Shown one piece after another: positions 14,097-51,383 of a DNA stretch of 64,000 nucleotides. Position numbers and translations under genes: made by a program. The notes under the pieces are model-generated. The model ran no database searches. It worked only from the letters and a program-made list of their open reading frames with translations, and was not told where the DNA came from. The stretch comes from Prorocentrum cordatum (taxonomy: Eukaryota). Each line of letters starts with the position of its first letter. Positions within the stretch are counted from its first letter, which is position 1. The stretch is from assembly GCA_963575745.1 (NCBI GenBank), contig CAUYUJ010000027.1, positions 1-64,000 on the forward strand. Reading direction: 5' to 3'.

Positions 14097-15578
14097 TTTG
14101 GGTGGTTTTGCAAACATTTAAAAGATATTTGACCATTTATTTTGAACAAGCAGATTTTTACGCCGAGCATTGGCATATGAACTCCTTTCTGACAGCAGCT
14201 CAGCTCTCTCGATGGATTTTTGCATGAGTTGACTTCTGGGAACTGAGCGAATATGAACATCCAAAAACATGAAATTTGAAGATTTTCGAAAATCTCGATT
14301 TTTTTTGATTCTGTGTCGATTCTCTGCACTCTTACTAGTGAGAGGAGCTCTACGAGGTTCCCGGCGATGACCAGGTTGACTGTTCACCGCCGGCGCCAGT
14401 TGGCAAGAAACATATCGACGGACCTTTTGGTGACTTTCGGTCGGTTGAAAATTTTGTTCTCAGAATTTGAACATTCGTTAGAGCTCTAGTATTTTTCCCA
14501 TGATATTCGATCTTTTCCCGCTCGCCATCTTGATCTCAGCTCGATCGGATAACTTTCAAGGCCAAAAAGCGTCCCGGCGGGAACGGCCGTTTTGAGTCAT
14601 TTTGATACGCGCTGTCGATATTTTGTACTTAACTCGAGCTATAGAGCAGCTACAGGGCTGGTAAGCACAGCTATCGCACTCAGGATGATCATGCGCGTTC
14701 GCCTGTTAAATCCAGAGGTCTGAACTCGGTCTGCTAGCCGAGCTAGGTCCGCAAACCTATTCGTATTATTCGAGTCATCTTGATAGACGCTCTCGGTTTT
14801 CTGTACTTAACTCGAGCTTTAGGGCAGCTACAAAGCTGGTAAGCACACCTGCCGCATTTAGAACCTGTTGAATCCAGAGGTCTGAACTCGGTCTGCTACT
14901 AGCCGAGCTAGGTCTGCAAACCTATTCGTATTATTCGAGTCATCTTGATAGACGCGTTTGGTTTTCTGTACTTAACTCGAGCGGTAGGGCAGCTACAAGG
15001 CTTATTGTGACAGACATGGATGGGGAATCATCAGTCGCGTTCGTCTATTGAACCGAGAGCTCTGAACTCGGCCTGCTGCCCGAGCTATGTTCGCGAACCT
15101 ATTCGTATTGTCCGAATGATCTTGAGAAGTGCGCTCAATTTTCCACACTAAACTCGTGCTGGGGGAGGGCTAGAGTGCTGCGATTCACATATATCGATTA
15201 ACACAGATCAGGCGCGTCTTTCGGTCGATTCTATAGCTCGGAACTCGGTCTGCTGCTCGAACTAGGTTCGCAAAACTATTATATTAGTCGAGTCGATACT
15301 GTCGGTTTTCTGCACTGAACTCGGGCTGTAGGGGGGCTGCAGGGCTGGGAATCACATTAGTATATTCGCAGACATCAGACGCGCCCGCCTGTCGCATTCA
15401 GAGGTCTGAACTCGGTTTGATACTCGAACTGGGTTGCGAAACTGTTTGTTTTTTGTTAGCGTTATCTTGAGAGGTCTGAAATCGCTTGGGCTTAAACAAT
15501 AGTCGTTCTTTGGAGTTTTTTCCCACAGTACATATTGTCAGGAAGCTCTACGAGTTCCCCGGCGGTAAGAAAGGTTGA

Positions 15579-16809
15579 TCATGAAGTTGATCATGAAGTT
15601 GCTGACCATGAAGTGTTGATCATGAAGTTGCGCACGTGGGTTCGCACGTTCCTGTTCTTGCTCAGACGGCAGCTGATGTGAAGATGTCGGAGTTGGAGAT
15701 GGATAACGAGGATAACATGCGGTGCTTACTACTTCAGACGATGCATAAGATGGATGACAATACTGAGAGGATCCAGGACGCCATAGTAGTTCAGGGTAGT
15801 AAAATCGATAATGTTCAGACCCAGGTACAGAAGCAGGGTAGTAAAATCGATAATGCTCAGACCCAGGTACAGAGATTTGAGGCCAGATACAATCAACTTG
15901 AGGCCTTCGTCCAGAGACTTCAGGGACTGGCGCGATCAGGTTCTGCGGCGAGTGCTGCGTCTACGAGGCCTGTGTTTACGAAACCTGCTAATACTATACA
16001 TTATACCTGAGTATATGCTGCCTGCCGCCGCCTCTCTGTGTTGCTGGCTTGTATTGTGTCACGTGCTTGTTCAGTGAGACGAGTTTGAACTTTTGTGACT
16101 TGTAATTGCGTTGCTTTCTTCATGCTTGTGTGTTCATGCATGCACGCGTGTCGAATAAGAGCTTCGCTTGATGGCCACTTGTTGCATGCATTAATGATTG
16201 AGATCGCCTCGCGTGGTCTTTTTGTTTGTTATTGGGACTGCCTCGTGTGGTTATTCAGTGCATCTTTATTCAGTGCAGCCATGGCTGTAATGCTTGTATC
16301 TCATTTGTTCTTCTTTTCCTCACTTTATCTCTCATTGAGCTCTAACAATTCAGTGTGTGCATGTTCAGTCCCTGGCCAGGTCTCCTGGCTCTCTTGTCGC
16401 AGTCTTAGTCTTGCCTCTTCAGTGTTCTCACTGTTGTAGGGTTTAATTTTAGTTCCGCCTCATCAGTTTCATTTGACACGTTTGATCGCCTTGAGTGGTC
16501 TCCAATTGATTTGTTTTGCTGGGTGCTTCCTTCACTTTCTTGATCGTTCCGACGTGCCTGTTGATTGAGACGTACTGTGGCCTCAAAGAGGTTCGATAGT
16601 ATTTGATCTCCTTAATTCATCACTTCACATTTGACGTTGAGCATAAGACTCTTGTCATACCGCGGGTTGTACAAGCGTATTTCGGAGAGCTTAGGCTGTC
16701 GTCTTCCTGATCGTCAGGATCGGTGAGGCTTCGCCTGCTCCCTATACGTCCGCGTCTTTACTTCCGACTAGGCTGGAAAGCCTGCACAGTCGACCGCAAA
16801 GTCCGCAAA
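15579..16809 (+). mobile_element. 1.2-kb retroposed insertion (non-autonomous or SINE-like) in an alpha hairpin loop
   Basis: 12-bp TSD aagaaaggttga (15567-15578 and 16810-16821). The 3' end reads gaccgcaaagtccgcaaa. No RT coding sequence. Confidence 0.8.
15684..16010 (+). CDS. Short coiled-coil-like ORF (possibly ORF1-like) inside the insertion
   Basis: Q/E/D-rich heptad-like sequence with a 14-codon duplication (QGSKIDNVQTQVQK / QGSKIDNAQTQVQR). No catalytic motif. Confidence 0.35.
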   Translation: MSELEMDNEDNMRCLLLQTMHKMDDNTERIQDAIVVQGSKIDNVQTQVQKQGSKIDNAQTQVQRFEARYNQLEAFVQRLQGLARSGSAASAASTRPVFTKPANTIHYT

Positions 16810-17813
16810 AAGAAAGGTTGACGGTTTACCGCCGGCGCCCAGTTGGCAAGAAAAACCTCGACGGAACTTTTGGTGACTTTTGGTCGGTTGAAAATTTTGT
16901 TCTCGAAATTTGAACATTCGTTAGAGCTCTAGTATTTTGTTCCGTGATATTCGATCTTATTCCCGCTCGCCATCTTGATCTCAGCTCGATCGGGTAACTT
17001 TGAAGGCCAAAAAGCACTCTGGCGGGAACGGCCGTTTCGAGTCATCTTGATACGCGTTGTCGGTATTTTGTACTTAACTCGAGCTGTAGGACAGCTACAG
17101 AGCTTGTAAGCACAGCTATGGCACTCAGAATCATCAGGCGCGTTCGGCTGTTCAATCCATAGGTCTGAACTCGGTCTGCTAGCCGAGCTAGGTCCGCAAA
17201 CCTATTCCTATTATTCGAGTCAACTTGATACGCGTTGTCGGTATTTTCTACTTAACTCGAGCTGTAGGGCAGCTACAGTGCTGGTAAGCACACCTATCGC
17301 ACGCAGATTCATCAGGCGCGCTCGCCTGTTGAATCCATAGGTCTGAACTCGGTCTGCTAGCCGAGCTAGGTCCGCAAACCTATTCGTATTATCCGAGTCA
17401 ACTTGATACGCGTTCTCGGTATTTTCTACTTAACTCGAGCTGTAGGCCAGCTACAGTGCTGGTAAGCACACCTATCACACTCAGAATAATCAGGCGCGTT
17501 CGCATGTTGAATCCAGAGCTCTGAACTCGGTCTGCTGCGCGATCCAGAATCACGAAACTGTTCGTATTCTTCCAGTCATCTTGAGAGCTACTGTCGGCGT
17601 TCTGCACGTAACTCGGGCTGTAGGGGGGCTGCAGGGCGGTTAATCACAGGAATCGATTCGGAGACATCAGACGCGCCCGTCTGTCGCATTCAGAGGTCCG
17701 AACTCGGTCTGATATTCGAGTTGGGCTGACAACCTATTTGTTCTCTGCATTTTTTTTCGACATTATATGTTGTCAGGAAGCTCTACGAGTCCCCCGGCGG
17801 TAACAAAGGTTGA

Positions 17814-19740
17814 GGGAAATTGTCTTTACCAGATGACGTCACCCCAAAAGCCAGCCTCCGAAAGTTGGGTTGTTTGGAAGCCAGCTCGACTCAGAATTGC
17901 TAGACGGATGTTCTTTGAAGCAAAGTGCCAGAGTGCAGTGCAGAGAGTTCTTTATTCCTTGTGGCAGCTTGGAGCTGACATAGCATCATATTTTGGAGCT
18001 AATGTCGACAGCGGATATCAGATTCCTGAGTCGGAGCTGAGCCCAGGAATGGTCGCGGGCTCTCTAGTTACCAATGGGATGGGGGAGGTCTCTTCAGTTA
18101 CCAATGGGATGGGGGCTGTCTCTTCAGTTACTAGTGGGATGGGTGCAGTCTCTTCAGATATGAATGGGATGGGTGTGGTCTCTTCTGATATGAATGGGAT
18201 GGTCTCTCCAGTTACCAGTGGGATGGATGTGGTCTCTTCAGTTACTGGTGGGATGGTGGGAGTCTCTTCAGTTACCAGTGGGATGGGTGCTGTCTCTGAT
18301 ATGCATGGGATGGTCTCTCCAGTTACCAGTGGGATGGGTGTGGTCTCTTCAGTTACTAATGGGATGGTGGGAGTCTCTTCAGTTACCAGTGGGATGGGTG
18401 CTGTCTCTGCAGTTACTAATGGGATGGGCGCAGTCTCCTCAGATACGAATGGGATGGGCGCTGTCTCTTCAGATATGCATGGGATGGTCTCTTCTGCTAT
18501 GCCCTCTGATAGGGCCTCTTCTTCTCGAGATGTTGAAGTTCCCTGTGAGCGGGGGGGGCCTAGGGATTCCCCCAGGCCCCCCCCGAAACGTCGGAGGGTG
18601 GCTGTTCCTGGACCTGGACAACAGACGGTGTATCCTCGTGCGCATCGTGACGCACGCCGGCTTCTGATGTGCTGTACCCCGAGGTGGGAGGAGAAAAGGA
18701 CACTGGAGTCAAAATATTGGCGTTCACAGTGGAAGTGGAAGGAGGCCTCGAAACTGACACGATTAGGCAGTACTAAGGGGCAGGCGACGGGTGAACATCC
18801 TTGGTGTTTCATGTTCCAGACGATATTTCCCTCGTTTGTGAATCTGGAGGATCGGTGGTGGAGGGCGTGCTCTTTCTCTTACTCTGACTTCGTTCAGTAT
18901 TGCAGGCAGTTCCTGGAAGCTTGTACTTTGGGGTCTCTGTTTGACTTGTTTGTTGTCCGTGGAGGAACTGGAGGGAGAGGAGACTACATAAAGGAGAGGG
19001 GGGAGGAGATGTTGGCTCGTCCGTTGTCGGCGAAGGAGTCCGAGAAGCTGGCCCAGAGATTGGCCTCGAACAATGAACAGGAGCCGACTTGGGATCTGAG
19101 TGATGATGGGATCGGTCTCGAGCTGACGGGCGATTCGCTTCTTATCTGTAACTGGATCAATGGTCTCTGGAAGGTTGAGGGAGGAGAAGGAGGAGATGGG
19201 GCTTCTTATCGTAGGCGGGTGGCAAATATTATTTCTCTTTTGGAAGAGTTGGAGGAGGAAGGAATACGACCCCCCTCATGGGGCAACGACTTCATTCGAC
19301 ACATATATCGAGAGAGTAACACAGTAGCTGATGAACTTACCCACTTAGCACGGGAAGGCCAGATATTCAGAGAGCTGTTCCACCACCATATCTTTCGTTC
19401 TGATGTCCGAGACAACTTTCGAGTTATTGGCCTCCGCGGATCCTTCGACGGCGGAGTGTGTGCCCAAGGTGTGGGCGTTGGCTGGTTTCTGCAGATTGGA
19501 TATATTCCTCGATTCCATGACCCTTACCCTGACCCTGAGCATAGAGATAAGAGAGCTCGTGTAGTCTCCCTCTTCCCCCAAGCCTCCTCTCCTTGTCCAA
19601 TCATATGGGAAATAGTAGGGCGTTGTGCACAGGCACTCCCCTCCCATAGCAGTATCACTGACGCTGAGCTTTCGGGTCTCGAGGGCCTCTTGCGGGCCGC
19701 AGTCCAGGTGGCCCAAGACCTCCAGCTGCAGAGAGACTAG
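17814..19740 (+). CDS. C-terminal part of a LINE ORF2-type protein: repeat linker + RNase H (permuted motif order)
   Basis: Uninterrupted frame with LELTGDSLL, HIYRESNTVADELT, GSFDGG and ITDAEL. The ATG at 17767 in the ORF track lies in host element sequence. Confidence 0.85.
18061..18500 (+). repeat. Coding 30-bp (and 21-bp variant) tandem repeat, SSVTxGMGAV
   Basis: Units such as tcttcagttaccagtgggatgggtgctgtc, all in frame. Confidence 0.9.
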
Positions 19741-21682
19741 GTAGGCACTTAACGGGCGCTGGGGCGCTCGGTGCCTGGTCAGCCTCCCCAAAAAACAAAG
19801 GTTGACGGTTTACCGCCGGCGCCCAGTTCCGGCGCGCTGGAGAGCTAGTTGGCTCGAAAAAAAAGAACTGAACTTTTCACAACTTTTGGTCAGTTGAAAA
19901 TTATGTTCTCGAAATCTGACCATTCGTTAGAGCTCTAGTATTTTTTCCCGTGATATTCGATCTTATTCCCGCTCGCCATCTTTATCTCAGCTCGATCGGG
20001 TATCTTTTACTGCGAAAAAGCACACTGGCGGGAACGGCCGTTTCGAGTCATCTTGATTCGCGTTGTCGGTATTTTGTACTTAACTCGAGCTGTAGGACAG
20101 CTACAGAGCTGGTCAGCACAGCTAATGCACTCAGAATCATCAGGCGCGTTCGCCTGTTAAATCGATAGGTCTGAACTCGGTCTGCTAGCCGAGCTAGGTC
20201 TGCAAACCTATTCGTATTATTTGAGTCAACTTGATACGCGCTGTCGATATTCTCTACTTAATTCGAGCTGTAGGGCAGCTACAGTGCTGGTGAGCACACC
20301 TATCGCACTCAGAATCATTAGGCGCGTTCGCCTGTTGAATCCATAGGTCTGAACTCGGTCTGCTAGCCGAGCTAGGTCCGCAAACCTATTCGTATTATTC
20401 GAGTGAACTTGATACGCGTTGTCGGTATTTCCTACTTAACTCGAGCTCTAGGGCAGCTACAGTGCGGGTAAGCACACCTATCGCACTCAGAATTATCAGG
20501 CGCGTTCGCTGTTGAATCCATAGGTCTGAACTCGGTCTGCTAGCCGGGCTAGGTTCGCAAACCTATTCGTATTATTCGAGGTAACTTGATACGCGTGGTG
20601 GATATTTTGTACTTAATTCGAGCTGCAGGGCAGCTATAGTGCTGGTAAGCACACCTATCGCACTAAGAATCATCAGGCGCGTTCGCCTCTTGACTCCAGA
20701 GGTCTGAACACGGTCTGCTAGCCGAGCTAGGTTCGCAAACTTATTCGTATTATTCGAGTCATCTTGATAAACGTTCTCGATATTTTCTGTACTTAACTCG
20801 AGCTGTAGGCAGCTACAGAGCCTAGAGTCACAGAAATCGATTGAGAATTATCGGGCGTGTTTGTCTCTTGTATCGAGAGCTCTGAACTCGGCCTGCTGCG
20901 CGAGCTAGGTTCGCGAAGCTATGCGTATTGTCCGAATCATCGTGAACAGTGCTCTCAATCTTCTGCACTCAACTCGTGCTGGGGGAGGGCTACAGTGCTG
21001 CGGGTCATAGAAATCGATTTGCACACATCAGGCGCGTTCGTTGGTCGATTCGAGAGCTCAGAACTTGGTCTGCTGCTCGAAACAGGTCTTCGAAACTATT
21101 ATATTATTCGAGTCATCCTGAGAGATGCTGTCGGTTTTCTGCACTTAACTCGGGCTGTAGGGGAGCTGCAGGGCTGGTAATCACATGAGTAGATTCGCAG
21201 ACATCAGACGCGTTCGCCTGTCGCATTGAGAGGTCTGAACACGGTCTGATCAGACGCGTCCGCTTGTCGCATTCAGAGGTCAAACAATATTCACTATGAG
21301 TCAGAATGTTGGTAGGTGCTCTCGGTTTTCTCAACTTAAGTCGAGCTTGGAAGCTCTACGAGTTCCCCGGCGGTAACCAAGGTTGACGGTTTACCGCCGG
21401 CGCCCAGTTGGCCGACCCGGCCAGAACGGACAAAGTGTTAACTTTTGGTCGGTTTTGCTAAGATTTGAAAGATATTTGACCATTCATTTTGAGAAAGCAG
21501 ATTTTTACTCCGAGCATTGACATATAAACTTCGTTCCCTGAGCAGCTCAGCTCTCTAGAGCCATTTTTGATACCAGTTCACTTGGAGCAACCGACTTCAT
21601 GTTGACTCCGAAAAATCTCAACTAGAAGTTTTTGTAGAAAAGCTGCCAGAAGCTCTCGCTTTGATCCTGAGCTTTGTGACGG

Positions 21683-24600
21683 ATGCAAGGAGCTCTACGA
21701 GGTTTCCTGGCACATGCTGTACGTACCGTGACATGTTCTGCTGAGCGTGAGCGTAATGCTCAGCTTGTTACACGTCTCCGTCGCGCAGCACTTGACAGCC
21801 AAGCAGTTGGCCCCACACTCACGCCTTCCGTCATATATCGAGCTCGCGCCCGCCTTCGTAGCGGGAAAGCTTGTGGACCCGATGGTGTTAGCATTGAGTT
21901 ACTCAAAGCTCTGCCATGGCGCTCGATGCGCAGGATCACTGCTGTGTTTCAGGAAATATATTCGGGTCGTCGGCGCACTCCCAGCTCATGGTGTGATGTG
22001 TATTTGAATCTCATGCCGAAGATGTCCAACATGGAGTCCCTGGATGACACCAGGAACTTGATAGTTTCCAACACTCTAGGCAAGTGGTACCTCACGGCAG
22101 TCACTATTCTTATCGAGGACAGGCTGGCTCTCTGGAAAAGTAAGTTGGGAATCTACGGCTTCGCAGGGGGACGGCACACATGGGAGATCGCGGCCGCACT
22201 TAAAGGTATTGCACAGCACGCTTCTATATGGGGCAAAGATCAGAGCGCACATATTGCATCGGCAGATATTGCACGAGCATTCGACAATGTCACGCTCAGT
22301 ATGCTTGCACGCGCTATGGATAAACTAGAGATCCCAGCACGCTTACAATATGCACTTATCGAGCCGCTCGCTGTTACAAATTGCACCATCGTCTTCGAGG
22401 GGATCCAACTGGATGGGGTTTCTTGGGATAAGAGCTTGAGGACGGGTGGGACTGAGAGCCCGCTTGCTTTCAACATCGTGGTTATCGCCATGTGGGCCTC
22501 TGTAGTTGCCTCTTTGGACGCTCAGAACATAGGGTACGAGATCCCCGACCCCCACAACCCCGCTACCTACCACACGTACAACCATGCGCTCTGGGCTGAT
22601 AATCTGTACCTTGTGGGGAGGAATGCTAAGGAAATCCAGAAGATCGTTGATGTTTTCACCATTGCTTTAGCAGACTGGGGAATGAGTTGGAAGTCATCAT
22701 CCTTGCAGATACTCGTATGCGGGACCCAGGACCCTACGCCGATTTTGGCCCAAGTCGGAGACCAACGAGTTGCCTTCACACCGGTGGAGTCGCTTTCTAT
22801 TCTGGGCTGCGTTGTCTGTAAAAGCTTTCTCGAGGGACACGAGGACCTAGCACATCGACTTAAATGCGCCAGAGGATCCTTTTTCGCTCAGATATCATAT
22901 TTTGGATGCAGATCGGTACCGCTGAAACACAAATATCGTCGTTATCAAGCTCAGGTCCAATCGCGTCTGCTATATGCGGGAGAGATGTTCACGCTTGATG
23001 CTGAGGCGGTGCGAACCATACATGCTTTTGAGGGCATGTGTCTGCTGCGTATGTGGTGCCGTCGCAAGCCGTCTTCGCTAACATGGGGTGTCTGGCGCCC
23101 TGAGATGCTCCACAAGGTGCGACAGCATTTCGCTGAGGCCAATTTCCCATCAGCTGTACAGATGATTGCTTGGAAGAGCTGGACGATGATGAGAAGTATC
23201 AAGGAGTATATCTTGTCAGATTGTCACCGTCGACATGTTCAATGGCGTCAGAGCGCAAGTCCTGAGGAAGCCCCGAGTGCGAGGGAACACCTCAGGCAAC
23301 GTCGCCAAATTTTGCAGGAGGCGTCAGGACGCAAGTCCTGGGGAAGCCCCGAATGCGAGGGAACACCCCAGGCACACGTCGCCACGTTTGCTGCTGATCC
23401 TGGGCCTTCCCAGAAGAGAGTACGATTTGCTGATACACCCTCGCAATCTTTCGCGGGAGTCATCTCACAAGTTGTTGCTGAGAGTATTGCATTGAGTGAT
23501 AGGCTGGAGGATGTTTCACAGGAGCTCGCCAGGCACATTGCGACCCAGGACGCCAGCTTCAACAGGCAGACCTTGAAGAGACGACGACTGCAGGGGCTAC
23601 GACAAGGGTTTGGCGGTGATTCTTTGGCTTCTGAGAATATTGATTCAGGGAGTGGGTCGGCGGCTCTACTGCCCACACTCTCCCTCCCAGCTCATGATAT
23701 TGATCACTGCAGTCCTGATAACAGAGCTTTCGTGGACAGCAGAAGGGGATTGCTCATGTACAATGTTGAGTGGACAACGCGCAGGGACATTATGGCAGAA
23801 TGTTGCCGACTACACGGCAACCGTACTCAGGCATCCACGATCAAGAGGTTGAGGGCTGGTCCAGAGAGAGTGGGCCAGCGTAGCTGGCAGTATCCATACA
23901 TTCTTACATATGGCAGCTCCTGGTGGTCGAGTGTCGAGACGAGCTATCGTTCTTTCCTGGAGATGTGGCAGAATCTTTTGTGCATGTACGATAAACCAAA
24001 GGTATTCCTGTATTTTGTTCAGAACTGGAAGGGCACAGCGGCGTACTATACACCTCCCGAGATGGTGGGGGATACTGAGCGTATACCGAGTGAGAAAGAT
24101 ACACAAAAACTTGCTAAGAGGTTGGCGATTATCTACGAGAGGCAGACGGTGTGGGACATTGTAAGTCCAGGATTCGGGGTAGAAATCAAAGGGGATAGTT
24201 TACTTGTGAATAACTGGCTGACGGGACGATGGCGATGCGACAATAAACAATACCAGAGACGTGTGGACCGATGCATTAACGTTCTAGATCGTGCTGCGGG
24301 GGATCTGGGTATTCGAAGTTCTGGATTGGGGAAAGATTTATATAGGCATGAATTCAGGGAAGACAACACACGGGCTGATGAACTTACACATTTGGCCCGC
24401 GAGGGCCACTGCTTCTACAACCAGTATGAGTACATGTTTAGCTTTGAGGACTTTCTACAACCTATCGCCTGTCGTGGTGGATACGATGGGGGAGTTTGCA
24501 GCAAAGGGACGGGGTGCGGCTTTTGGCTTCAAGTGGGTTTCATCAATCATAGATATGATTGTAATAAGAGTGTCTCGTGTTCTCCTCTCCCCTCCTCCTC

Positions 24601-24763
24601 CCCCTACTCCGTGTCCTCTAATATGCCTCTCGTTTGGAGGGATGTGTGCGAAGCCGCGTGGTGCCTGGAGGGTGCTACGATAACCGACGCCGAACTTAGT
24701 GCTGCTGAGGCGCTTACTAGCGCTGTTGTGCATTTGGCGCAGCAGATTCTGGCCGCCAGTTGA
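21683..24763 (+). CDS. Non-LTR reverse transcriptase with C-terminal RNase H (1026 aa, N-terminally truncated)
   Basis: RT motifs GKACGPDG, YGFAGGR, ADIARAFDNV, LRTGGTESP, LWADNL and LSILG. RNase H motifs KGDSLLV, FREDNTRADEL, GYDGG and TDAEL. The first ~10 codons are host-derived. Confidence 0.93.
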   Translation: MQGALRGFLAHAVRTVTCSAERERNAQLVTRLRRAALDSQAVGPTLTPSVIYRARARLRSGKACGPDGVSIELLKALPWRSMRRITAVFQEIYSGRRRTPSSWCDVYLNLMPKMSNMESLDDTRNLIVSNTLGKWYLTAVTILIEDRLALWKSKLGIYGFAGGRHTWEIAAALKGIAQHASIWGKDQSAHIASADIARAFDNVTLSMLARAMDKLEIPARLQYALIEPLAVTNCTIVFEGIQLDGVSWDKSLRTGGTESPLAFNIVVIAMWASVVASLDAQNIGYEIPDPHNPATYHTYNHALWADNLYLVGRNAKEIQKIVDVFTIALADWGMSWKSSSLQILVCGTQDPTPILAQVGDQRVAFTPVESLSILGCVVCKSFLEGHEDLAHRLKCARGSFFAQISYFGCRSVPLKHKYRRYQAQVQSRLLYAGEMFTLDAEAVRTIHAFEGMCLLRMWCRRKPSSLTWGVWRPEMLHKVRQHFAEANFPSAVQMIAWKSWTMMRSIKEYILSDCHRRHVQWRQSASPEEAPSAREHLRQRRQILQEASGRKSWGSPECEGTPQAHVATFAADPGPSQKRVRFADTPSQSFAGVISQVVAESIALSDRLEDVSQELARHIATQDASFNRQTLKRRRLQGLRQGFGGDSLASENIDSGSGSAALLPTLSLPAHDIDHCSPDNRAFVDSRRGLLMYNVEWTTRRDIMAECCRLHGNRTQASTIKRLRAGPERVGQRSWQYPYILTYGSSWWSSVETSYRSFLEMWQNLLCMYDKPKVFLYFVQNWKGTAAYYTPPEMVGDTERIPSEKDTQKLAKRLAIIYERQTVWDIVSPGFGVEIKGDSLLVNNWLTGRWRCDNKQYQRRVDRCINVLDRAAGDLGIRSSGLGKDLYRHEFREDNTRADELTHLAREGHCFYNQYEYMFSFEDFLQPIACRGGYDGGVCSKGTGCGFWLQVGFINHRYDCNKSVSCSPLPSSSPYSVSSNMPLVWRDVCEAAWCLEGATITDAELSAAEALTSAVVHLAQQILAAS

Positions 24764-24796
24764 CCCAGCTGGAACATCGGTCCGAAAACCCAAAAA
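21712..24796 (+). mobile_element. 5'-truncated non-LTR retrotransposon (RT + RNase H) in a beta right end
   Basis: The host reads gagctctacgaggtttcctggc|...|accaggttgacggttcaccgccggcgccag. The 3' end is ccgaaaacccaaaaa. No TSD, small target deletion; the 5' junction is uncertain by a few bp. Confidence 0.9.
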
Positions 24797-24881
24797 ACCA
24801 GGTTGACGGTTCACCGCCGGCGCCAGTTGGCCCAGCCGGCCGTGGCGGACAATGCGACAACTTTTGGTTGTTTTGCAAAAA

Positions 24882-28461: not shown

Positions 28462-28500
28462 TGGGCGCAACCATGTTGAAAATTGAAGATTTGAAGGAAA

Positions 28501-28866
28501 TACCTCGTAGAGCTCTTCGCCATTGATGAGCTAGAGGAATTCCGGCGCGGGGTGGAGCTAGTTGGCCGACCCGGCCAGAAAGGACAATGTGACAACTTTT
28601 GGGTGGTTTTCCGATTTTTTGAAAGATATTTGAGAATGAACGACTATGAGGTCCTCTCTGTCTTAGTATGAGCTCTGTAGGCGCACTTTTACTATGAAAA
28701 CACTTGGAGGAACCATCTCGATGTCGACACGAAAAAAACAACAATTTTTCTTTTTTTCGAGAAATGTTTCTAGAAGCTCTTTCTTTCGACTCTGAGCACC
28801 CTTACGCGTGAAATAAGCTCTACGAGGTTCTCGGCGGTGACCAGGTTGACCGTTCACCGGCGCCAG
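28501..28866 (+). mobile_element. Complete beta element (internally shortened)
   Basis: Both termini are present. Confidence 0.8.
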
Positions 28867-31066
28867 TCTACTGCAAAAGTTCTCTGCTTCGATTCTGGCT
28901 GTTCTAAGGGTAAGGAACTCTACGGGGTTTCTGGGGGTGACTGGGTTGACGGCTCGCCGCTGGCGCCAGTTCCGGGGCGCTGGAGAGCTAGTTGGCAAGA
29001 AAAATCTTGACGGACCTTTTGGTGACTTTTGGTCAGAAAATTTTGTTCTCGAAATTTGACCATTTGTTAGAGCTCTAGTATTTTTCCCCGTGATATTCGA
29101 CCCCGTTCCCGCTCGCCATCTCGATCTCAGCTCGATCGGGTACCTTTCACTGCCAATAAGCACACGGGAGGGATCGGCCGTTTCGAGTCATCTTGATACG
29201 CGGTGACGGTTTCCTTAATATAACTCGAGCTTCAGGACAGCTACAGAGCTAACAAGCACAGATAACTGATTCAGAATCATCAGGCGCGTTTGTCTGTTGA
29301 ACAGAGAGGTCTGAACTCGGTCTGCTAGCCGAGCTAGGTCCGCAAACCTATTGTATTATTCGAGTCATCTTGACAGACGCTCTCGGTTTTCCGCTCGAGT
29401 TACAGGACAGCTACAGAGCTGATGCGTACAAGATCATTGAGAATCATTAGTGGCCGTTGTCTGTTAAATCTAGAGCTGAACTCGGTCTGCTGCCCGATCT
29501 GGAATCGCGAAACTATTCGTATTGTTCGAGTCATTTTTAAGAGATGCTGCCGGTTCTCTGCACTTCAACTCGGGCTGTAGGGGCGGCTGCATGGCTGGTG
29601 ATCACTGGAATCGATTCGGAGACATCAGACGCGTCCGTCTTTCGAATCGAGAGCTCCGAACTCTGTCTGCTGCCCGAACTAGGTCCGCAAAACTATTCGT
29701 ATTGTTCGAGTCATTCTGAGAAATGCTGTCAGTTTCCTGCACTTACCTCGGGCTGTAGGGGGCTGCCGGGCAGTAATCACAGGAATCGATTCAGAGACAT
29801 CAGACGCGTCCGCCTGTCGCATGCAGAGGTCTGAACTCGGTCTGATACTCGAGCTAGGTTTGCCAAAGTATTCGTATTTGATTGGGCTACAAAAATTATT
29901 CGTTCTCAACAATTTTCCTTCCACATTATATTGTCAGGAAGCTCTACGAATCCCCGAGTGGTAAGAAAGGTTGACGGTTTACCGCAGGCGCCCATTGGAC
30001 CGCCCGGCCAGAAAGGACAAATTGGTGACTTTTGGTCGCTTTTAGAAAGCAGATTTTTGCGCGTCGCATTGGCATATAAACTCCTCTCTGACAGCAGCTC
30101 AGCTCTCCCGATGCATGTTTCCATGAGTTCACTTCCGGGAACTGAGCGAATATGAACATCGAAAAAATTGAAATGAAGATTTTCAAAAAATCTCTATATT
30201 TTCACTCTGTTCCGATTTTCTGCACTCTTACTAGTGAGAGGAGCTCTACGAGGTCGACGAGGTTGACGGTTCACCGCCGGCGCCAGTTTCCCGTCCCCGA
30301 GAGTGTCTTCGCTCTCCGGGTGTTGGACGCTACCAAGTCGGTCGCATACGAATAGTTTTCCGGACCTAGCTCGAGTAGCGGACTCTGTTCAGAGCTCTGG
30401 TCGCTTCAGCCGAACGCCCCCGATGATTCTGGACCGCTTTCTGTGCGCACCAGCTCTGTAGCTGTGCTAGAGCTCGAGTTAAGTACAGAATACCGACAGC
30501 GGCTCTAAAGAGAACATAAGAAATACGAATAGTGTCGTGGATCTAGCTCGAGTAGCAGACCGAGTTCAGGCCTCTTGATGCAACAGACGAACGCGCCTGG
30601 TGATACTGAATCGGTTTATGTTCGAACCAGCTCTGTACCTCCTCTGAATCTTGAGTTCAGTACAGAATACCGACAGCACTGGTCAAAATGACTCGAAGAA
30701 TACAAACAGTTTTACGGACCTAGCTCGAGTAGCAGACCGAGATCAGACCTCTGGATGCAACAGACGAACGCGCCTGATGATTCTGAATCGGTTTCTGTAA
30801 GTACAGCTCTGTAGCTCTCCGAAATCTCGAGTTAAGTACAGAAAACCGTGAACGCGTGTCAAGATGACTCGGAACATAGTCGGTTGCTGCAAGTGTTTTG
30901 ATAGTAATACTGCACCTAAGGACCTGAGAATTTGACTGGCAGACGCGGCATAACCCACTACAGGTGCGAAAAATCTGGTTTCCCAAAATGAACTGTCAAA
31001 TATCTTCAAATATCAGCAAAACTGACCCCAGGTCACCACATTGTCTCTTAACGTCGGGTCTGCCAA

Positions 31067-31470
31067 CTGGGAACCGGCGGTAAACCGTCAACCAGGTAAC
31101 CGCCGGGCACCTCGTAGAGCTCTCTTGTTGCACAGCGCTCCTCGGAACATGAAGGAAGCTTCTAAAGCGAGAGCCGAAAAATTCGAAAAATCATGATTTT
31201 TCGGTTTCCATCCAAAAGCGGTTCCTGCAGGTCTTTCGATAGTAATATTGCAGCTACGGACCTGAAAATTTAATTGGCAGACGCTGCATAACCCACTACA
31301 CGTGCGAAAAATCTGGTTTCTCAAAATGAATTGTCAGATATCTTTCAAATCTTGGCAAAACCGACCCAAAGTCACCACTTTGTCTCTTAAGGCCGGGTCG
31401 GCCAACTAGCTCCATCCCGCGCCGGAATGAATTCCTCTAGCTCATCGATGCCGAGGAGCTCTACGAGGTA
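31067..31470 (-). mobile_element. Beta-type element nested in another minus-strand beta-type element (~30287-31531)
   Basis: Reverse-complement termini; the host rejoins as gagctag|ttggc on the minus strand. Confidence 0.8.
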
Positions 31471-31639
31471 CTAGCTCCACCCCGCGCCGGAATTCCTCTA
31501 GCTCATCGATAACGAAGAGCTCTACGAGGTTCTGGGATCCTGCGGTAAACCGTCAACCAGGTAACCGCCGGGAGCCTCGTAGAGCTCTGTTCTCGCGCGG
31601 CGCTGCTCGGATCACACGAAAAAAAACTTTCTCAAGCGT

Positions 31640-34600
31640 GAAGACTAGTTTCGAGGATCTAGATGCCCGAACTCGGTCTGCTTCCAAAGCTGGGCCCGAG
31701 AACATATTTTAAGAGATGAAGGCGACTTCCTCTAGATAGCTCGAGCTGCAGATGAGCTGCAGAGCTGTTTGGCACAACAATCGAAGGACATCATCAGAAG
31801 CGCTAGTCTCGAGTATCTAGATGCTCGAACTTGGTCTGCTGGGTCAGAACAACTGTTCGTACTCTGCTAATTTTGTAAGCGATGGTGATGACTTTCTTGA
31901 GATAACTCGAGCTGCAGATAAGCAACACAGCTGTTTGGCACAACAATCGATAGGAACTCATCATAAGCGCTAGTCTCAAGTATCTAGATGCTTGGATTCG
32001 GTCTGCTTCCAGAGTTGGAAACACGCAACTATGTGTACTTTACCTTTTCCCGAGATGACGATGCCTTCCTTGATGTAGCTCGAGCTCCAAATTAGATTAG
32101 AGAAGTTTGGCACAGCAATCAGACGAATATTATCAGGGACGCTAATTGCAAGTATCTACATGTTTGAAATCGGTCTTCTACCAGCGCTGGAACGAAACAA
32201 CTATTCGTACTCCTGCTCCTCGTTGCTCCATCTCTTCCGCCTCTTCCTCCTTCATCTGCTCCTTCGCGTCTTTCTCCTTCTGCTCCTTCTCTTCCCCCTT
32301 CTGCTCATCTTTGCTCATCTTCATCATCGTCTTCGTGCCTCTTCTTCCCCATCCACCCTTCCCCCTCCTGCTCGTCATCCTCCTTGTCCGCCTCCCCCTC
32401 CTTCTCTTCCGCCTGCGCCTTCTCCTCCTTCTTCTTCTCTTCCTCAGCCACCTCTATCTCCTTCTCGTCCTCGCTACTTCTTCTCCTCCGTGCCCCTCTC
32501 CGTGAAAACGCGCCGTCACGCGCGCGGAATGCGAGATTGCCGCGCCCGCTTCGCATTCATGTATACCGAGGAGGCTCCACGAGTTCCCGGTAACCAAGGT
32601 TGACGGGTTACCGCCGGCTTGCAGTTTTCAAGAGCTAACGATGTCTTTCGTGATTTAACTCGAGCTGCAAATGAGCTACAGAGAAATGTTCGGCACAGCA
32701 ATGAAACAAAGTGTTCAGGCGCGCTAGTCTCAAGTATCTAGATGTCTGAGCTCGCTTGGCTACCAGAGCTGGGTCCGAAAAACTATTCGTACTCTGTTGA
32801 TTTTTGCAGGAGATGATGATGATTTTCTGGATGTTTCTCGAGCTGCAGATGCTCTACACAGTTGTTTTGCACAGCAATCGGATGAGCATCAGCAGAAGTG
32901 CTATTCCTGTGTTTCGAAACGTCCGAGATCGGTCTGCTAGCAGAGCCGGAACCAAATAACTATTCGCACCCTGCATTCGTTAAGAAGATGATACTCTTCT
33001 CGACCCCATTCGAGCTGTAGGCTGACTAAGAAGCTGAGAAGCACTTCTCGTCAATTCCCTTCCTCCCCCACTGCCCTCGCGCGAGCGGAATGCAAGATTG
33101 CCGCGCCCGCATCTACTTCATGTATTATTTCGCATGTAAGCTCTTCGAGTTCTCAGCGGTAACCAAGGTTGGCGGCTTGCCACTGGCTCCCAGTTTAGCA
33201 TAATTTTGGTCGGTTTAAAGCCGATTTATAGAAATATGTCTAGTACTGTTGCCCCCCCATATTCGATCTCATTCCCGCTCGCCATCTTAATCTCAGGTCG
33301 ATCGGGTAGATGTTACTGTCACAAAGAACTCTGGTGGGATCGGCTGTTTAGTGTGATCTTAGCAGATGCTGACGGTTTCCTGAACTTAACTCGAGCTTTA
33401 GACGAGCTACAGAGCTGACAGGCACACATGATCAATCAAGAACCATCAGGCGCGCTAGTCTCTAGTATCTAGATGTCCGAACTCGGTCTGTTACTAGAGC
33501 TACGACCAACGAACTATTCGCACCCTGCTAATTTTTCCCAGACATGATGGTCTTCTTGACTGAACTCGAGCTGAAGATGAGCTGCAGAGCTGGTCGGCAC
33601 AGCAATCGAAATCTAATCCTCATAAGCCCTCGTCTGAAGTATCGAGATGCCCCAACTCGCTCTGCTACCCCAGCTGGGTCCGAAAAGTATTCGTTATCTG
33701 CTATATATTTATATATTAATTAAGAAAAAGCGGATGATGAGTTTCTTGATGTCACTCGGCTGGAGATGGACCGCAGAGCTGTTTGGCTCAGCAATCGAAA
33801 GGAACTCATCAGAAGCGCTAGTCTCAGGTATCTAGATGTCAGAACTCGCTCTGCTACCAGGGCTGGGTCCGAAAAACTATTCGTACTCTGCTATTTTGTC
33901 AAACAAATGGTGGCTTTCTTGATGTGGCTCGAGCTGCGGGTGAGCTACACAGCTGTTCTGCACATCAATCGGAGGGACATAATCAGAGGCGCTATTTGTG
34001 AGTATCTAGACGTCTGAGATCGGTCTGCTACCAGAGCTGGAACCAAATAACTAGTTGCCCGAAATGGTCATATTTTCTCTATTTCATTCGAGCTGTAGGC
34101 TGGCTAAGAAGCTGAGAAGCACTTCTCGAATCTCCTGCTCCCCACTCCCCCTTCTCCTTCGCCTCCTCCTTCGTCTTATTATTCTCCCTCCTCTCCCCTC
34201 TTTATTCTTCCCCTGCTCCTTCTTCCCTTCCTTCCTTTCCTCCTTCCTCCTTCATGTGCTCCTTCTCCTGTTTCTTCTCTCCTCTTTCTCCTCCTCGTCA
34301 TTCTCCCCCCTTCAGCATCATCGTCCCCCTTCTTTCCCTCCACCCTTCCCCCTTCTGCTTGGAATCCTTCCCTGCTTCTTCTCCTCCTCCTTCGTCTTTT
34401 CCTCAGCCTCCTCCATCTCCTGCTCCCCCTCGCTCCTTCTTCCCCTCTGCGGCCTCCTCCGTGAAACCGCGCCCCCGCGCGAGCGGAATGCGAGGTTGCC
34501 GCGCCTGCATCTCACTCGTGTATATCGCAGGGAAGCTCTGCGAGTTCCCGGCGGTAGCCAAGGTTGACCGCTTACCGCTGGCTCCCAGTTTTTGATTTAT

Positions 34601-36100
34601 CCGAAATGGATTTCTCGAAATTTGAGAGGTCGTTAGAACTCCTAATATTTTTTTCCCCATATTCAATCTTATTCCCGCTCGCCATCTTGATCTCAGGTAG
34701 ATGGTACACATTACTATCCAAAAGCATTCAGCTGGAATCGGCTGTTTAGTGTCATATCGGCAGGTGCTGTCGGTGTTCTCAACTTAACTCGAGTGGTAGT
34801 GGAGATGCAGAGCTGGCACCGAACTCGGTCTGCTACTAGAACCAGGACGGTCAAACTATTCGTGCTCTGCTGGTATCTTTGAGATGATGATCAATTTCCT
34901 GATGTAGCTCGAGCTGCAGATGAGCTACAGAGCTGTTTGGCACACCAATCGAAAGGGAATAGTATGAAGCGCTAGTCCCGAGTATTGATGCCCGAACTCG
35001 CTCTGCCCCCAGAGCTGTGCCCGAAAAACTATTCGTACGCTGCTAATTTCTTAAGAGATGATGATGATTTTGTGGATTCAACTCGAGCTGCAGATGAGCT
35101 ACAGAGCTGTCTGGCACAGCAATTGAAAGGAAATCATCAAAAACGTTAGTCTGAAGTATCTAGATGCCCGCGCTCGGTCTGCTACCAGAGCTGGTCCCGA
35201 ACAACTATTTGTACTCTGATAATCTCTTAGAGATGGTGATGAGTTTCTTGATGTACCTCGAGCTGCAGATGAGCGGCAGAGCTGTTTGTCACAGCAATCG
35301 AAAGGCAATCATTAGAAGCGATAGTCGTCTCGAGCATGTAGATGCCCGAATTCGGTCTGCTGCCAGAGTCGGGTCCGACAAACTATTTGTACTATGCGAT
35401 TTTTTTTCAGAGATTATGATGGCTTTCTTGAGATAGCTCGAGCTGTAGATGAGCTACAGAGCTGTTTGGCACAGCATTCGAAAGTAGATTTTCAGGCGCG
35501 CTAGTTCCAAATATCTAGATGTCTGTACTCGCTCTGCTACCAGAGCTGGCATCGAGCTGCAGATGAGCTGCAGAGCTGTTCGGTACAGCAATCAGACGAA
35601 TATTATCAGGGGCGCTAGTTGCAAGTATCTACATGTTTGAAATCGGTCTTCTGCCAGCGCTGGAACCAAACAACTATTCGTACTCCTGCTCCTCGTCCTC
35701 TTCCTTCTCTCCTTCTCCTCCTCTTCTTCCTTCTTCATCTGCTCCTTCGTCTCTTTCTCCTCCTGCTTCTTCTCTCCCTCCCTCTCCTCATCTTCCTCCT
35801 TGATCATCATCATTATCGTCCCTCTTCTCCCCCTCCACCCTTCCCCGTCCTGCTCGTTTTCCTCCGCCTGCTCCTTCTCCTCCGCCTGCTCCTTCTCCTC
35901 CTCCTTCGTCTCTTCCTCAGCCTCCTCAATCTCCTTCTCCTTCTCGGTCCGTCTTCTCCTCCGTGTCCTCCGCCATGAAACCGCGCCCTCGCGCGCGCGG
36001 AATGCGAGATTGCCGCGCCCGCAATCCATTCATGTATATCGAGGAAGCTCTACGAGTTCCCGGCGGTAACCAAGGTTGACGGTTTACCGCCGGCTCCCAG
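31640..36100 (+). mobile_element. Older related family (delta): diverged internal repeats, CT-rich tract, degenerate hairpin right ends
   Basis: Right ends finish at about 32624, 33193, 34588 and 36100, each preceded by cgcgc..gcggaatgcRagRttgccgcgcc. Confidence 0.7.
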
Positions 36101-39010
36101 TGAAGGGAGAGCAGCACAGTTGCAGGATTGGCGGCAATCTGACCGCATGGTGCGGCTGGAGACGAGCCCCGCGACGGCAAAAGCGACTGAGCGCCATCGA
36201 GGCTTTATATTCCTACCGATGCTACTAAATCAACTCCTGTGATAGAGAGCTCAGTAGCTGCTCTTAATCTCGAGGGCAAGTCGAAAAACTTCTGGCATAG
36301 TTGCAGAACGTGACTAGTTGTTCGGCCATCGCTCGAGACGCAGAATTCCAGTTTCTCGATTGTGGATAGAACTGCTTCCAGTGCTGCTGAGCCCATTATT
36401 TCATATGAGACTTTTTTTGCTGTTCAGAATCGTAAGATCGAGCCAAACAAACAAACGTGTGCGTATTTTTTTGGTCGTGGTTCGAGTAGCAAACCGATTT
36501 CAGGCTTCTCAGTCTCTAGACTAATGTTTCCGATGCTGTTCGAGTTATTGACGCCATGAAACTTCTGTAGCTGCTAACAAATCTTGAGGTCAAGTCAGAA
36601 CATCGACAATTTGCCAGAAACTTGGGCGCCGTTTGTAAACCGCCAACCAAAGTTGCCACTGGGAACTCGTAGAGCTTATTTCCGAGCAGGGCGTCGTTCA
36701 AAATATCGTATATTTCACGAGCGTATGAACGCAAGCTGAACCTGCTCTTATACGTCAAAGCTTAACCGAATGTGGAAATTTGCAGTGCGAATAGATCGTC
36801 TGCTAGTTGAGCTAAGCGGAATTTGGTGGCGGTGTGGATTTAGTTGGCCGACCCGGCCAGGACGAACAATGTGACGACTTGGGGTCGGTTGTTCGAACGT
36901 TCTGAGAGATTTGATCGTTCGTTTTGTAATTCGAGATTTGTCTATGGAGCATTCGATCACGCTCCGTTCGCTGGTAAAAGTATCTGGGTTGTAGCTGCAG
37001 TATTTCTGTCGATCCATTTCCAACCTTAAGAAAATACTATCTTGCAGAAAATCAAGCTTGTCTAATTCAACTTCAGCTGTAGGCCAACTACCTAGGTTTA
37101 ATGTGCACGGGGAGCTCCAGCAGCATTGCAGGCTCCAGTCTCCTGGAGTCGATTTGCTATGGCTGGAAAAACTACTGACGCGCTCCGACTTCGTGCTTAC
37201 AACAAAAGAAAATAGATTGTTCGAGTTTTGAAGCTGATGGTCCCAGAAACTTTCTCATCTAGAGAGTTCTTACGCGTGCAAGCTCTACGAGTTCCTGGCG
37301 GTAACCTGGTTGATGGCTTTTCGCTGGCGCCCATTGTCGGCCATATCTCGAGTATCAGACCTATTTGAGGCGTCTCGAGCCTTCAGACTGATGCCAACAT
37401 GCTGCTGAAGCTATTGGTACACATGAAACCTCAGTAGCTTGTGTAAATCCCGAGCTTCGGTCCAATAGCCGAACGCAGGAGCAAAACATTGTCTCAGAGC
37501 GAGTGCCCGCCCTACTAGAATGTGCTCTTCAAAATTTTGGGGTTCGACCTGAAATCAAGATGGCGAGCAGGAGTGAGATCGAAGTTTTCTGGGACATTTG
37601 TTTCATCAGAACTACATTTTTTTCTCTTCCAACCAGCCGCAGGTTAACGCATTGTCCGTCGAGATTTTGTTGGCCAACTAGTCCAGAAGTGTTCCCGTGC
37701 TACTCTTCGCTCCCGCAGCTTCGTTACCAGGGAAGCTCTACAAGTGAAGCTGCAGAGTTCGATTCATTTTTCGGTCGTAGTTCGGGTAGCAGAACGATAG
37801 CAGGCTTCTCGAGCATGTGGGCGGCAACTCCCGATGCTGCTAAACGTATCCGTCAACATAGGGTCTGTCGCTCCTCTACATGTCGATCTGAAATCGAAAA
37901 ACACGTACATTGCAGAGTGCGAATTGTTTCTTGGTCACAGCTCGAGTAGCAGGCAGATCTCGGGCTTCTCGATCCTCTGCACTAATGCTCCTGATGCTGC
38001 TGAATCTATTTTTGAATGTCGAGATCACATAGGGAAACTTATATTTGCTCCAGAGAGTTGCAGAGTGGTGTTTCGGCCGTGGCTCGAGGAGGAAACTGGA
38101 TTCAAACCGAATTCGGGCTCTTGGACTATGTATGTAAGCGTGGGCTGATGCGGCAGAAGTTTCATGCACGCATCAAATCTCTGTAGCTGTTCCGAATCTC
38201 GAGATCAAGTCGAGAAACCGAGCATGCGCCCAGAACAGTTGCAGAGTCTGAACAGTTGTTCAAACATACCTTGAGAAGCACACCGATCTCAGGCTGTCAG
38301 ACCATGTCAACGCTAGCGTCTGATGCTGCTGAACCGGTTCGTCTACAATTGCGAAATGCTTTCAATGTCGAGATCAAGGCAACAAACTGAACACTAGCCC
38401 CAAAGAGTTGCTGAATGCGAACCTGTTTTCGGCCATAGCTCGAGTAGCAGGCCGATCTCAGGCGCCCCGATGCTCTAGACTAATACTTCCGATGCTGCTG
38501 AAGCTACACTTGAGACCACTCTAGCTGCTCCAAATCTGGAGATCAAGTCGAACAAACCGATCATTCGCCCAACACAAAGTGCACTATGCAAATAGTTGTT
38601 CAATCATAGCTCGAGGAACAAGCCGATCTGAGGCTGTTCGACTATGCTCACAAGAGCTTTTGATGCTACTGAATATATTCGTCTACATGCAACCTCTGCA
38701 GCCCCTGAATGTCGATATCAAGTCGAAAGACCGAACACTTGCACCAAAGAGTTGCAGAGTGCTAGTATTTTTTGGGTCGTAACTCTGGAAGCAGACGGAT
38801 ATCAGGCCATAGCTCGAGTAGCAGGCAGATTCTAGTCCCGATCCTCAAGACTAGAGCTTCCGGTGCTGCTGGAGCTCTCCATGCGCATGAACCTTTGTAA
38901 TTGGCCTGGATCTCAAATTAACTGAGAAAACATACATGTTCTGCAACGCACTTTTTTGTTATGCTTGGTCCTGGATTCAAACTGGGCGCCGGCGGTAAAC
39001 GGTTAACCAG
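36101..39010 (-). mobile_element. Highly decayed members of the same element group, mostly minus strand
   Basis: Minus-strand right ends at ~36622-36676 and 38982-39010, a minus alpha leader at ~37510-37746, and a plus-strand degenerate right end at ~37280-37333. Confidence 0.6.
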
Positions 39011-39090
39011 AGTATTGCGGTTTGCGGTCAGGCACGGCAGGAGCCAGATGGCCCCAGGCTAAGGGTCTCACGCGCGGGGTAGCCTGCCGA

Positions 39091-51348: not shown

Positions 51349-51383
<35 letters not shown>

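Follow-up and report, generated by a model that had tools for sequence, protein, structure and literature searches.

We analysed a 64,000-nt stretch of DNA from Prorocentrum cordatum (GenBank assembly GCA_963575745.1, contig CAUYUJ010000027.1, positions 1 to 64,000 of the forward strand; the whole stretch is termed the window). A nested array of short non-coding elements, termed host elements, covers 61% of the window, and each host unit ends in a hairpin. Four longer inserts interrupt this array (Table 1). All four were joined to it at the same position of the terminal hairpin and in the same orientation, and three of them were similar to long interspersed nuclear elements (LINEs) with an endonuclease of the APE type and a reverse transcriptase (RT). 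These results point to a LINE lineage that probably uses the hairpin of another mobile element as its target.

Table 1 Features of the host array and of the four inserts. TSD, target-site duplication; subTIR, subterminal inverted repeat; ORF, open reading frame.
Feature	Positions	Strand	Details
Nested array of short non-coding host elements	1..39012		mostly + to ~30.3 kb; older, degenerate copies of mixed orientation at 30-39 kb
Intact target hairpin (example)	5404..5444	+	arms CCGGCGGTAA / TTACCGCCGG, loop GAAAGGTTGACGGT, then CGCCCAGT
Complete host element, alpha type	6830..8034	+	5' subTIR ACTCGTAGAGCTTCC, central 178-bp repeats, 3' subTIR GGAAGCTCTACGAGT, hairpin, end CGCCCAGT
TSD of insert 1, 5' copy	15567..15578	+	aagaaaggttga, exact 12 bp
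Insert 1	15579..16809	+	1,231 bp; A-rich 3' end; 108-aa coiled-coil-like ORF at 15684-16010
TSD of insert 1, 3' copy, with rest of split hairpin and host end	16810..16843	+	TSD copy at 16810-16821
TSD of insert 2, 5' copy	17802..17813	+	aacaaaggttga, exact 12 bp
Insert 2	17814..19793	+	5'-truncated LINE; A5-6 tail; end of RT thumb; C-terminal RNase H-like domain 18637-19737
TSD of insert 2, 3' copy, with rest of split hairpin and host end	19794..19827	+	TSD copy at 19794-19805
Insert 3	21712..24796	+	5'-truncated LINE; A6 tail; open frame 21680-24763 (P0001, 1,027 codons)
Domains of insert 3	22154..24760	+	RT ~22154-22711; C-terminal RNase H-like domain 23717-24760
Second half of hairpin and host end behind insert 3	24797..24827	+	beta type (TTCACC)
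Second half of hairpin and host end behind insert 4	38981..39012	-	GGTTAACCGTTTACCGCCGG, host end CGCCCAGT
Insert 4	39013..43835	-	old, degenerate, frameshifted, near full-length LINE; approximate boundaries
Domains of insert 4	39737..42743	-	APE region 41813-42743 (frameshift); RT 40737-41415; part of C-terminal domain 39737-40276

The first ~39 kb of the window has a G+C content of ~48-50%, compared with 58-67% past 54 kb. The 3' terminus of each host unit is ~60 nt long and was read as ...GAGCTCTACGAG-N-CCCGGCGGTRA-loop-GGTTGACGGTTYACCGCCGG-CGCC(C)AGT, in which GGTTGACGGTTYACCGCCGG is a 20-nt core. When up to 3 mismatches were allowed, this core matched 35 times in the window (32 on the + strand and 3 on the - strand), whereas each of 100 shuffles gave no match. 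The inverted repeat CCGGCGGTRA ... TYACCGCCGG encloses a loop containing GGTTGAC and is followed by CGCC(C)AGT. Four copies folded as single-stranded DNA gave stems of 10-12 bp at -11.3 to -16.9 kcal/mol (z -1.8 to -4.2); the intact example of Table 1 has a 10-bp stem and -11.3 kcal/mol. The stem stops 8 nt short of the 3' end of the element and the loop measures 9-14 nt. Among 32 distinct arm pairs from the window and from assembly G001, described below, compensatory changes were found in the stem at pair 2 (CG 17, GC 10), pair 3 (GC 10, AT 9, CG 2) and pair 9 (GC 6, AT 13), and the loop sequence GGTTGAC was almost invariant across subfamilies and two assemblies. Two host copies, at 30239-30290 of the window and at 610-661 of locus L021, lack exactly arm 1, with the breakpoint at the loop start; they may represent a footprint or a structure-prone deletion at the place where LINEs insert.

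The junctions of the inserts were then read against this hairpin (a slash marks the break). The 3' junction is ...gtccgcaaaa/agaaaGGTTGACGG in insert 1 (16809/16810), ...cctccccaaaaa/acaaaGGTTGACGG in insert 2 (19793/19794) and ...cccaaaaaa/ccaGGTTGACGG in insert 3 (24796/24797). In insert 4, on the - strand, it is ...ccgcaatactct/GGTTAACCG, at 39009/39008 or up to 4 nt earlier (39009-39013). The split point lies directly behind arm 1, CCGGCGGTR/A, where the host sequence resumes behind inserts 1-3 within the ambiguity of the A-run, and the orientation relative to the hairpin is identical in all four inserts. An earlier reading of the window from its letters (the sequence-only reading) had proposed this single position and single orientation, and both were borne out. 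For insert 4 it had named the junction ~39015: the hairpin position stood and the coordinate was corrected to the range given above. Its range ended at 39030, whereas the 5' junction of insert 4 appears to lie at ~43836.

As had also been proposed, two inserts are flanked by 12-bp TSDs, which are exact copies of aagaaaggttga in insert 1 and of aacaaaggttga in insert 2. They bracket the loop and differ by a G/C that also separates natural loop variants of the host. The top-strand break is GGTTGA/CGG in both of these inserts, and the bottom-strand break reads 5'-...CTTTCT/TACCGCCGG-3', leaving a T-rich 3' end. Short A-runs of 4-6 were found at the 3' end in three of the four inserts. The host copies that were hit all differ (a loop AAGAAA, a loop AACAAA, a copy of the beta type and an inverted degenerate copy), and so do the inserts, in which nucleotide similarity was limited to one 44-nt patch between inserts 2 and 3, with shared protein parts ~33% identical. 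Since both the hosts and the inserts differ, the four events are independent, in agreement with the sequence-only reading.

We next characterized the inserts by protein similarity. An exhaustive protein search yielded 1,581 relatives at E <= 1e-3 and 29 at E <= 1e-30, and the full-length ones were 1,260-1,455 aa long. A profile of ten of these relatives (A4) matched human L1 ORF2p with E 1.6e-31, colinearly over APE and RT (profile 9-711, chain 7-707), and R2 RTs with ~1e-23. Its N-terminal positions 8-250 matched exonuclease III, APE1 and the L1 endonuclease (E 6.4e-7 to 1e-3). With Pfam alone, the endonuclease of P0020 scored 23.6 bits, under the cut-off of 24.5, and phmmer searches of the PDB with the single proteins P0009 and P0020 gave 0 matches; matches were obtained only with profile A4. 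A protein atlas returned generic RT/RNase H clusters only, at <=0.85. When four family proteins were compared with the 64 kb by tblastn, LINE similarity was detected at three places only, all of them hairpin inserts. Insert 3 matched RVT_1 (E 1.3e-9, 38.5 bits against a cut-off of 29.6). The RT and C-terminal pieces of insert 4 were found by tblastn, and its APE region matched profile A4 (positions 14-112, 137-282) with a probability of 93% and E 3.4e-7, and with a probability of 46% and E 2e-4. Inserts 2 and 3 are truncated at the 5' end, by which the APE domain is gone; the LINE inserts finish at a natural stop followed by a short untranslated region (UTR) and are colinear with the 3' parts of LINEs. 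These similarities support the assignment of inserts 2, 3 and 4 as parts of one diverged APE-type LINE lineage with an APE domain, an RT and a C-terminal RNase H-like domain. The proposal of a site-specific LINE group was thus supported inside the window by the RVT_1 match, by the profile matches over APE and RT, and by one position and orientation in all four inserts. Of the "four retro-type insertions" of the sequence-only reading, inserts 2-4 were retained as members of this lineage, and insert 1 showed neither an RT nor similarity to LINE proteins.

Insert 1 had no similarity to the other inserts either. The product of its 108-aa ORF shares 72% identity with a protein from a Pyramimonas sp. 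data set. Despite having no RT, it agrees with a LINE insert in its insertion site, in the length of its TSD and in its A-rich end, as would be expected of trans-mobilisation; we therefore read it as a probable non-autonomous element or retrocopy.

The nature of the host element was examined as well. A 5' subterminal repeat was found at unit starts in 11 copies on the + strand, with the sequence ACTCGTAGAGCTTCC in the alpha type and ACCTCGTAGAGCTC in the beta type. Its reverse complement, 14-15 nt long, stands directly before every hairpin (GGAAGCTCTACGAGT in the alpha type and GAGCTCTACGAGGT in the beta type), and the 5' and 3' copies co-vary between the types. Four of the 11 5' repeats start 1-5 nt past the ...CAGT end of the preceding unit. 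In 3 of 3 folded ends the 5' repeat paired with downstream bases, with weak z-scores (-0.09, -2.26 and -1.62). The units hold 178-bp tandem repeats internally. Paralogous empty sites were found for two elements: the element at 6830-8034 (flanks 6794-6831 and 8035 onward) interrupts ...caactt/ttggg..., which is uninterrupted at 3875-3960, and the element at 24883-26001 interrupts ...gcaaaaat/ttgaga.... Both empty sites lie in T-runs, and no duplication accompanied the insertion of the host. The unit after a host 3' end begins at variable points, which is explained by nested TSD-free insertions into T-runs; the alternatives that the units are 5'-truncated retroposons or a telomere-like array were dropped, as such nested insertions fit instead. 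In self-BLAST, the unique stretches of >=120 bp within the array were 3482-3873 (392 bp, inside one unit), parts of 36.1-38.2 kb and the four insert bodies, which were unique apart from short internal repeats. Rfam and tRNA scans of the window gave 0 matches each, indicating that the array is neither an RNA-gene array nor a ribozyme repeat known to Rfam. No Rep/helicase (RepHel) gene was found in the window, and Pfam detected 0 families in its 15 other stop-to-stop frames (154-408 aa).

The passages on Helitron2 in Bao and Jurka (PMC3627910) and on Helentron-derived HINE/DINE-1 elements in Thomas et al. (PMC4067079) describe elements with short subterminal inverted repeats, the 3' one placed immediately before a hairpin at the 3' end, with tandem repeats in the centre and with TSD-free insertion into T-runs. 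The host resembles the elements described there in its 14-15 bp subTIRs, which lie 1-2 nt from the 5' end and just ahead of the 3' hairpin, in its central tandem repeats and in its T-run targets without a TSD, and it may share with them a 5' hairpin that involves the repeat (with the weak z-scores given above). It differs from them, as far as those passages go, in its long hairpin (stem 10-12 bp, loop 9-14 nt) with the conserved loop GGTTGAC, and in that the window contains no RepHel gene. Because the subTIRs, the 3' hairpin, the central tandem repeats and the TSD-free use of T-runs match the published features, the results support that the host element has the structural hallmarks of Helitron2/Helentron-type non-autonomous elements. 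The sequence-only reading had called the host rolling-circle-like; this held and could be taken further.

Taken together, the break geometry, a constant orientation, TSDs, A-tails and truncated 5' ends are characteristic of target-primed reverse transcription (TPRT) at one defined site. It is likely that a target-specific APE-type LINE lineage inserts in this way at the loop of the 3'-terminal hairpin of an abundant Helitron2/Helentron-like non-autonomous element. The site would be chosen by the element's own endonuclease, as in R1 and Tx1. This endonuclease would nick the bottom strand directly behind arm 1, at the break given above, and the T-rich 3' end at the nick would pair with the short A-tail of the LINE RNA; read-through RNA made from resident copies may also pair with the loop. 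The top strand would then be cut 12 nt away, as seen at GGTTGA/CGG in two of the four events, producing the 12-bp duplication around the loop. A multicopy and non-essential hairpin could serve as a safe haven in which the LINE persists, as R1 and R2 do in rDNA and Tx1 in DNA transposons, and the splitting of the hairpin probably cripples the terminator of the host element.

Several observations weigh against this reading. A TSD is missing from two inserts: insert 3 lost 3-4 nt of the target at its 5' junction (~21711), a loss that agrees with the letters found between both sides in uninterrupted host copies among sequencing-run contigs, and insert 4 shows no clear TSD, its 5' end adjoining an apparent degenerate arm 1 (ccaggcggaac) at ~43836. 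The events come from a single 39-kb array, in which a segment of 10 kb holds three of the four; a regional effect is therefore possible. The nick site is T-rich and L1-like, and TA[AG][GC]AAA occurs elsewhere in the array, 19 times on the top strand and 17 times on the bottom strand; part of the site preference may therefore be generic. No DNA-binding domain able to read the target was identified in the LINE proteins. In other sequence sets, the flanks of two LINE-related metagenome loci (L001 and L003) lacked the GGTTGACGG hairpin motif, four hairpin-bearing contigs of assembly G001 had no match to the LINE protein P0004, and none of the contigs listed from the sequencing runs carried 31 letters on each side of the 3' junction, so that no further junction could be counted.

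Other explanations of the fixed site were weighed against TPRT by a target-specific LINE. In a bolder form of that reading, which is unlikely, the LINE machinery reads DNA shape: both strands are nicked at the stem-loop borders of the extruded hairpin and the TSD corresponds to the loop, so that a structure-directed retroelement, in a lineage that may carry a circularly permuted RNase H, specifically parasitises and inactivates rolling-circle transposons. If so, the arrangement of a LINE inside a Helitron would offer a concrete route by which Helentrons could have gained their LINE-derived endonuclease. Alternatively, and quite improbably in our view, the hairpin itself is fragile: extrusion or replication stalling exposes it, host structure-specific nucleases nick the stem-loop borders, and any LINE cDNA is primed or captured there by endonuclease-independent or opportunistic retrotransposition, the orientation being set by pairing of the T-rich bottom-strand loop end with A-tails. 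Consistent with this, the hairpin is a conserved structure, both nicks are 0-4 nt from the stem-loop borders with the TSD roughly equal to the loop, the copies without arm 1 indicate that breaks do occur there, small deletions take the place of TSDs at inserts 3 and 4, and insert 1 shares the site without LINE similarity. However, a clean TSD with an A-tail is a mark of endonuclease-dependent TPRT, and endonuclease-independent insertions are usually without a TSD, so the two clean 12-bp TSDs with identical boundaries and A-tails weigh against this explanation. Moreover, the protein-coding inserts (3 of 3) all belong to one lineage, sequences of other kinds were not seen there, and 31 of the 35 motif sites are free of LINE.

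The remaining explanations are far less probable. The same ~30 nt stand behind every LINE copy, and it is therefore conceivable, though barely so, that the half hairpin with CGCCCAGT is the LINE's own 3' tail and that the host units are SINE-like tail sharers, in which case nothing is targeted. The variable starts of the next units look at first like 5' truncation, but the nested TSD-free insertions into T-runs account for them. This explanation is contradicted by the TSDs on both sides of inserts 1 and 2, with arm 1 on the 5' side, and by a tail that matches the local host subtype (TTTACC or TTCACC) while the LINE proteins are only ~33% identical. Helitrons capture foreign sequence, and every LINE piece lies inside a host unit near its 3' end, so that uptake of LINE fragments beside the 3' end during rolling-circle transposition was considered; we regard it as very doubtful, because gene capture would neither copy the loop as a 12-bp direct repeat nor place A-tails at a constant junction, and because the fragments are all colinear 3' parts of LINEs that end at the natural stop and a short UTR. 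Least credible is a coincidence or a generic T-rich preference in a repeat-dense region. The nick site does resemble the loose TTTT/A preference of the L1 endonuclease, and much of the window is array. However, with 35 sites in 32,732 bp of array and two strands, the chance per event is 5.3e-4, and that of three further events at the same phosphodiester and strand is ~1.5e-10 (~5e-8 within +-3 nt); in addition, dozens of comparable T-rich sites of the array are empty.

The insertion of one mobile element at a fixed place in another has known counterparts. In the passages of PMC4494074 on Tx1-clade LINEs, DNA transposons are the targets: Tx1L inserts in the piggyBac-type Tx1D, Tx1-Mar in Mariner-N4_AMi and Tx1-9_AMi in Harbinger, and SINEU and Tx1-Mar share one target. 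The present LINEs resemble those described there in that they occupy one position of another, multicopy DNA transposon in one orientation, and in that a non-autonomous element shares the target (SINEU there, insert 1 here). Unlike those Tx1 LINEs, they use the terminator hairpin loop of a rolling-circle (Helitron2-like) element, their host is an aquatic protist and not an animal, and they have a C-terminal RNase H-like domain without a conserved CCHC motif; the likeness drawn here is one of insertion mode. For R1 in the 28S rDNA and the R1 clade, the relevant part of PMC1919474 describes an APE endonuclease that cleaves both strands of a defined target. A constant TSD and a multicopy target as a safe haven would be common to R1 and the present lineage, and by analogy the specificity here may also lie in the endonuclease; unlike R1 as described there, the target is a transposon end and not a host gene. 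These comparisons support that the insertion works like that of the Tx1 and R1 target-specific LINEs; the kind of target and the lineage are new. Full-text searches of the literature listed no description of a LINE that targets a Helitron hairpin.

Target-specific LINEs are few, and they are valued as natural experiments in the avoidance of host harm and as starting points for site-directed gene insertion. If our reading is correct, a structured DNA signal of another mobile element would be a new target class, an aquatic protist would represent a new host group, and the locus would be a clear case of one transposon preying on another. As the target is a short, defined palindrome, it allows a direct test of whether sequence or structure is read by an APE endonuclease.

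The region behind the RT was analysed further. A Cys-His (CCHC) motif C-terminal to the RT is typical of the Tx1 and L1 clades. Such a conserved motif was not found here: no Cys column was kept in >=8 of the 10 rows of A4, the only two His columns kept in >=8 rows fall in the APE and RT regions (positions 270 and 725 of P0009), and matches to a CCHC-like pattern were sporadic (3 of 12 proteins, at differing places). A C-terminal domain is kept in 19 aligned relatives (A2), all of which end shortly past a T.T.AELSA.E.L helix. The first part of this domain matched the C-terminal half of RNase H (3u3g, E 0.0027, chain residues 55-134); its top five PDB matches were all RNase H, and A4 positions ~1066-1146 matched RNase H chains as well. 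Pfam RVT_3 was matched in 8 of the 19 members, with a best E of 0.0011, under the cut-off. The motifs GDS.L and H..RE.N..AD.LTH, of the type of the C-terminal half, come before FDGG..G.G.G and T.T.AEL, which resemble the N-terminal half. The AlphaFold model (predicted local distance difference test, pLDDT, 76.6, and >90 in the core) has the order strand-helices-strand-helix, then three strands and a helix. On the grounds of this motif order and of the predicted strand and helix order, the domain, as present at 23717-24760 and 18637-19737 of the window, may be a circularly permuted RNase H. Sequence searches back the first part only: a profile of the last ~80 residues (A6; the DGG and AEL segment) had no RNase H match in the PDB, Foldseek returned nothing for the domain model at E <= 0.001, and in VIA-align wide the best Z of 5.0 was to unrelated alpha/beta proteins, an RNase H chain reaching Z 3.6 over residues 142-232. 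An intron splitting the C-terminal domain in L001 and insert 4 was considered and dropped, as L001 is simply a 5'-truncated copy. Full-text literature searches listed no description of a permuted RNase H in a LINE. L1 elements of plants and the green lineage reportedly carry an archaeal-like RNase H domain, as Smyshlyaev and colleagues are said to have described in 2013. The present lineage would resemble these in its APE-RT part, which is colinear with L1 ORF2p, and in an RVT_3 or archaeal-type RNase H-like module behind the RT; unlike them, it has only the C-terminal half of RNase H in detectable form, placed first, has no CCHC and is site-specific. In insert 2, ~15 repeats of a 30-bp unit (10 aa, VSSVTNGMGA-like) at 18055-18487 lie within the open frame and separate the RT from the C-terminal domain.

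Other sequence sets were searched for LINE relatives and for the hairpin. A metagenome search with a 6-sequence alignment (A3) gave 3 loci, of which L001 and L003 comprise only the last ~90 residues of a distant LINE relative and L002 is a weak match in a 70-kb contig. The hairpin motif had 0 matches in viral contigs and 7 loci in prokaryote genome contigs; two of the latter (L006 and L009) are eukaryote-like contigs in a bin labelled Nitrospinota. This assembly, G001, holds 22 hairpin copies on four A+T-rich eukaryote-like contigs (L006, L009, C84 and C99), with subfamilies that include arms GAGCGG/CCGCTC and the end GTTGCCAT; these contigs are probably eukaryotic contamination of the bin.

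In the sequencing runs, record 24 of X2 is a diverged LINE 3' end (50 differences, 10 gaps) that reaches 23 letters into the hairpin half, and record 16 of X19 stops exactly at 24796. Joints that skip 3092 with 8-11 letters between them are other uninterrupted host copies and not empty alleles. The summed word depth of host-end bins was about three orders of magnitude above that of the LINE body (253,209 against 124-492 in X1), from which the host end is a very abundant repeat, the depth not being a copy number. A 76-bp duplication in insert 3 (23244-23391) had a depth in X1 ~10x that of the neighbouring LINE body. In run X19 (organism C), the last ~300 bp of insert 3 (24472-24715) had depths of 13,749-23,113 against 25-207 in the rest of the LINE body; an abundant short element or heavily truncated copies sharing the LINE 3' end may account for this peak, in which depth is again not a copy number.

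The inserts are unevenly spread. Between 14401 and 24827, three of six consecutive host units are occupied, compared with none of the ~17 units upstream, which may reflect local clustering of insertions. Past the array, inverted arrays of an 83-bp repeat (43891-44126 and 48054-48440) flank a G+C-rich stretch of 4 kb. Two pentamer repeats are found to its right, (TGCTA)n immediately before the right-hand 83-bp array and (TAGCT)n after it (47393-47770 and 48813-49245). The stretch bounded by the 83-bp repeats may be a large inverted-repeat element or a palindrome adjoining the array. Finally, a 4.2-kb degenerate period-3 repeat tract at 50287-54472 has a very strong G-over-C skew of 0.43-0.63 and is open in several frames on both strands.

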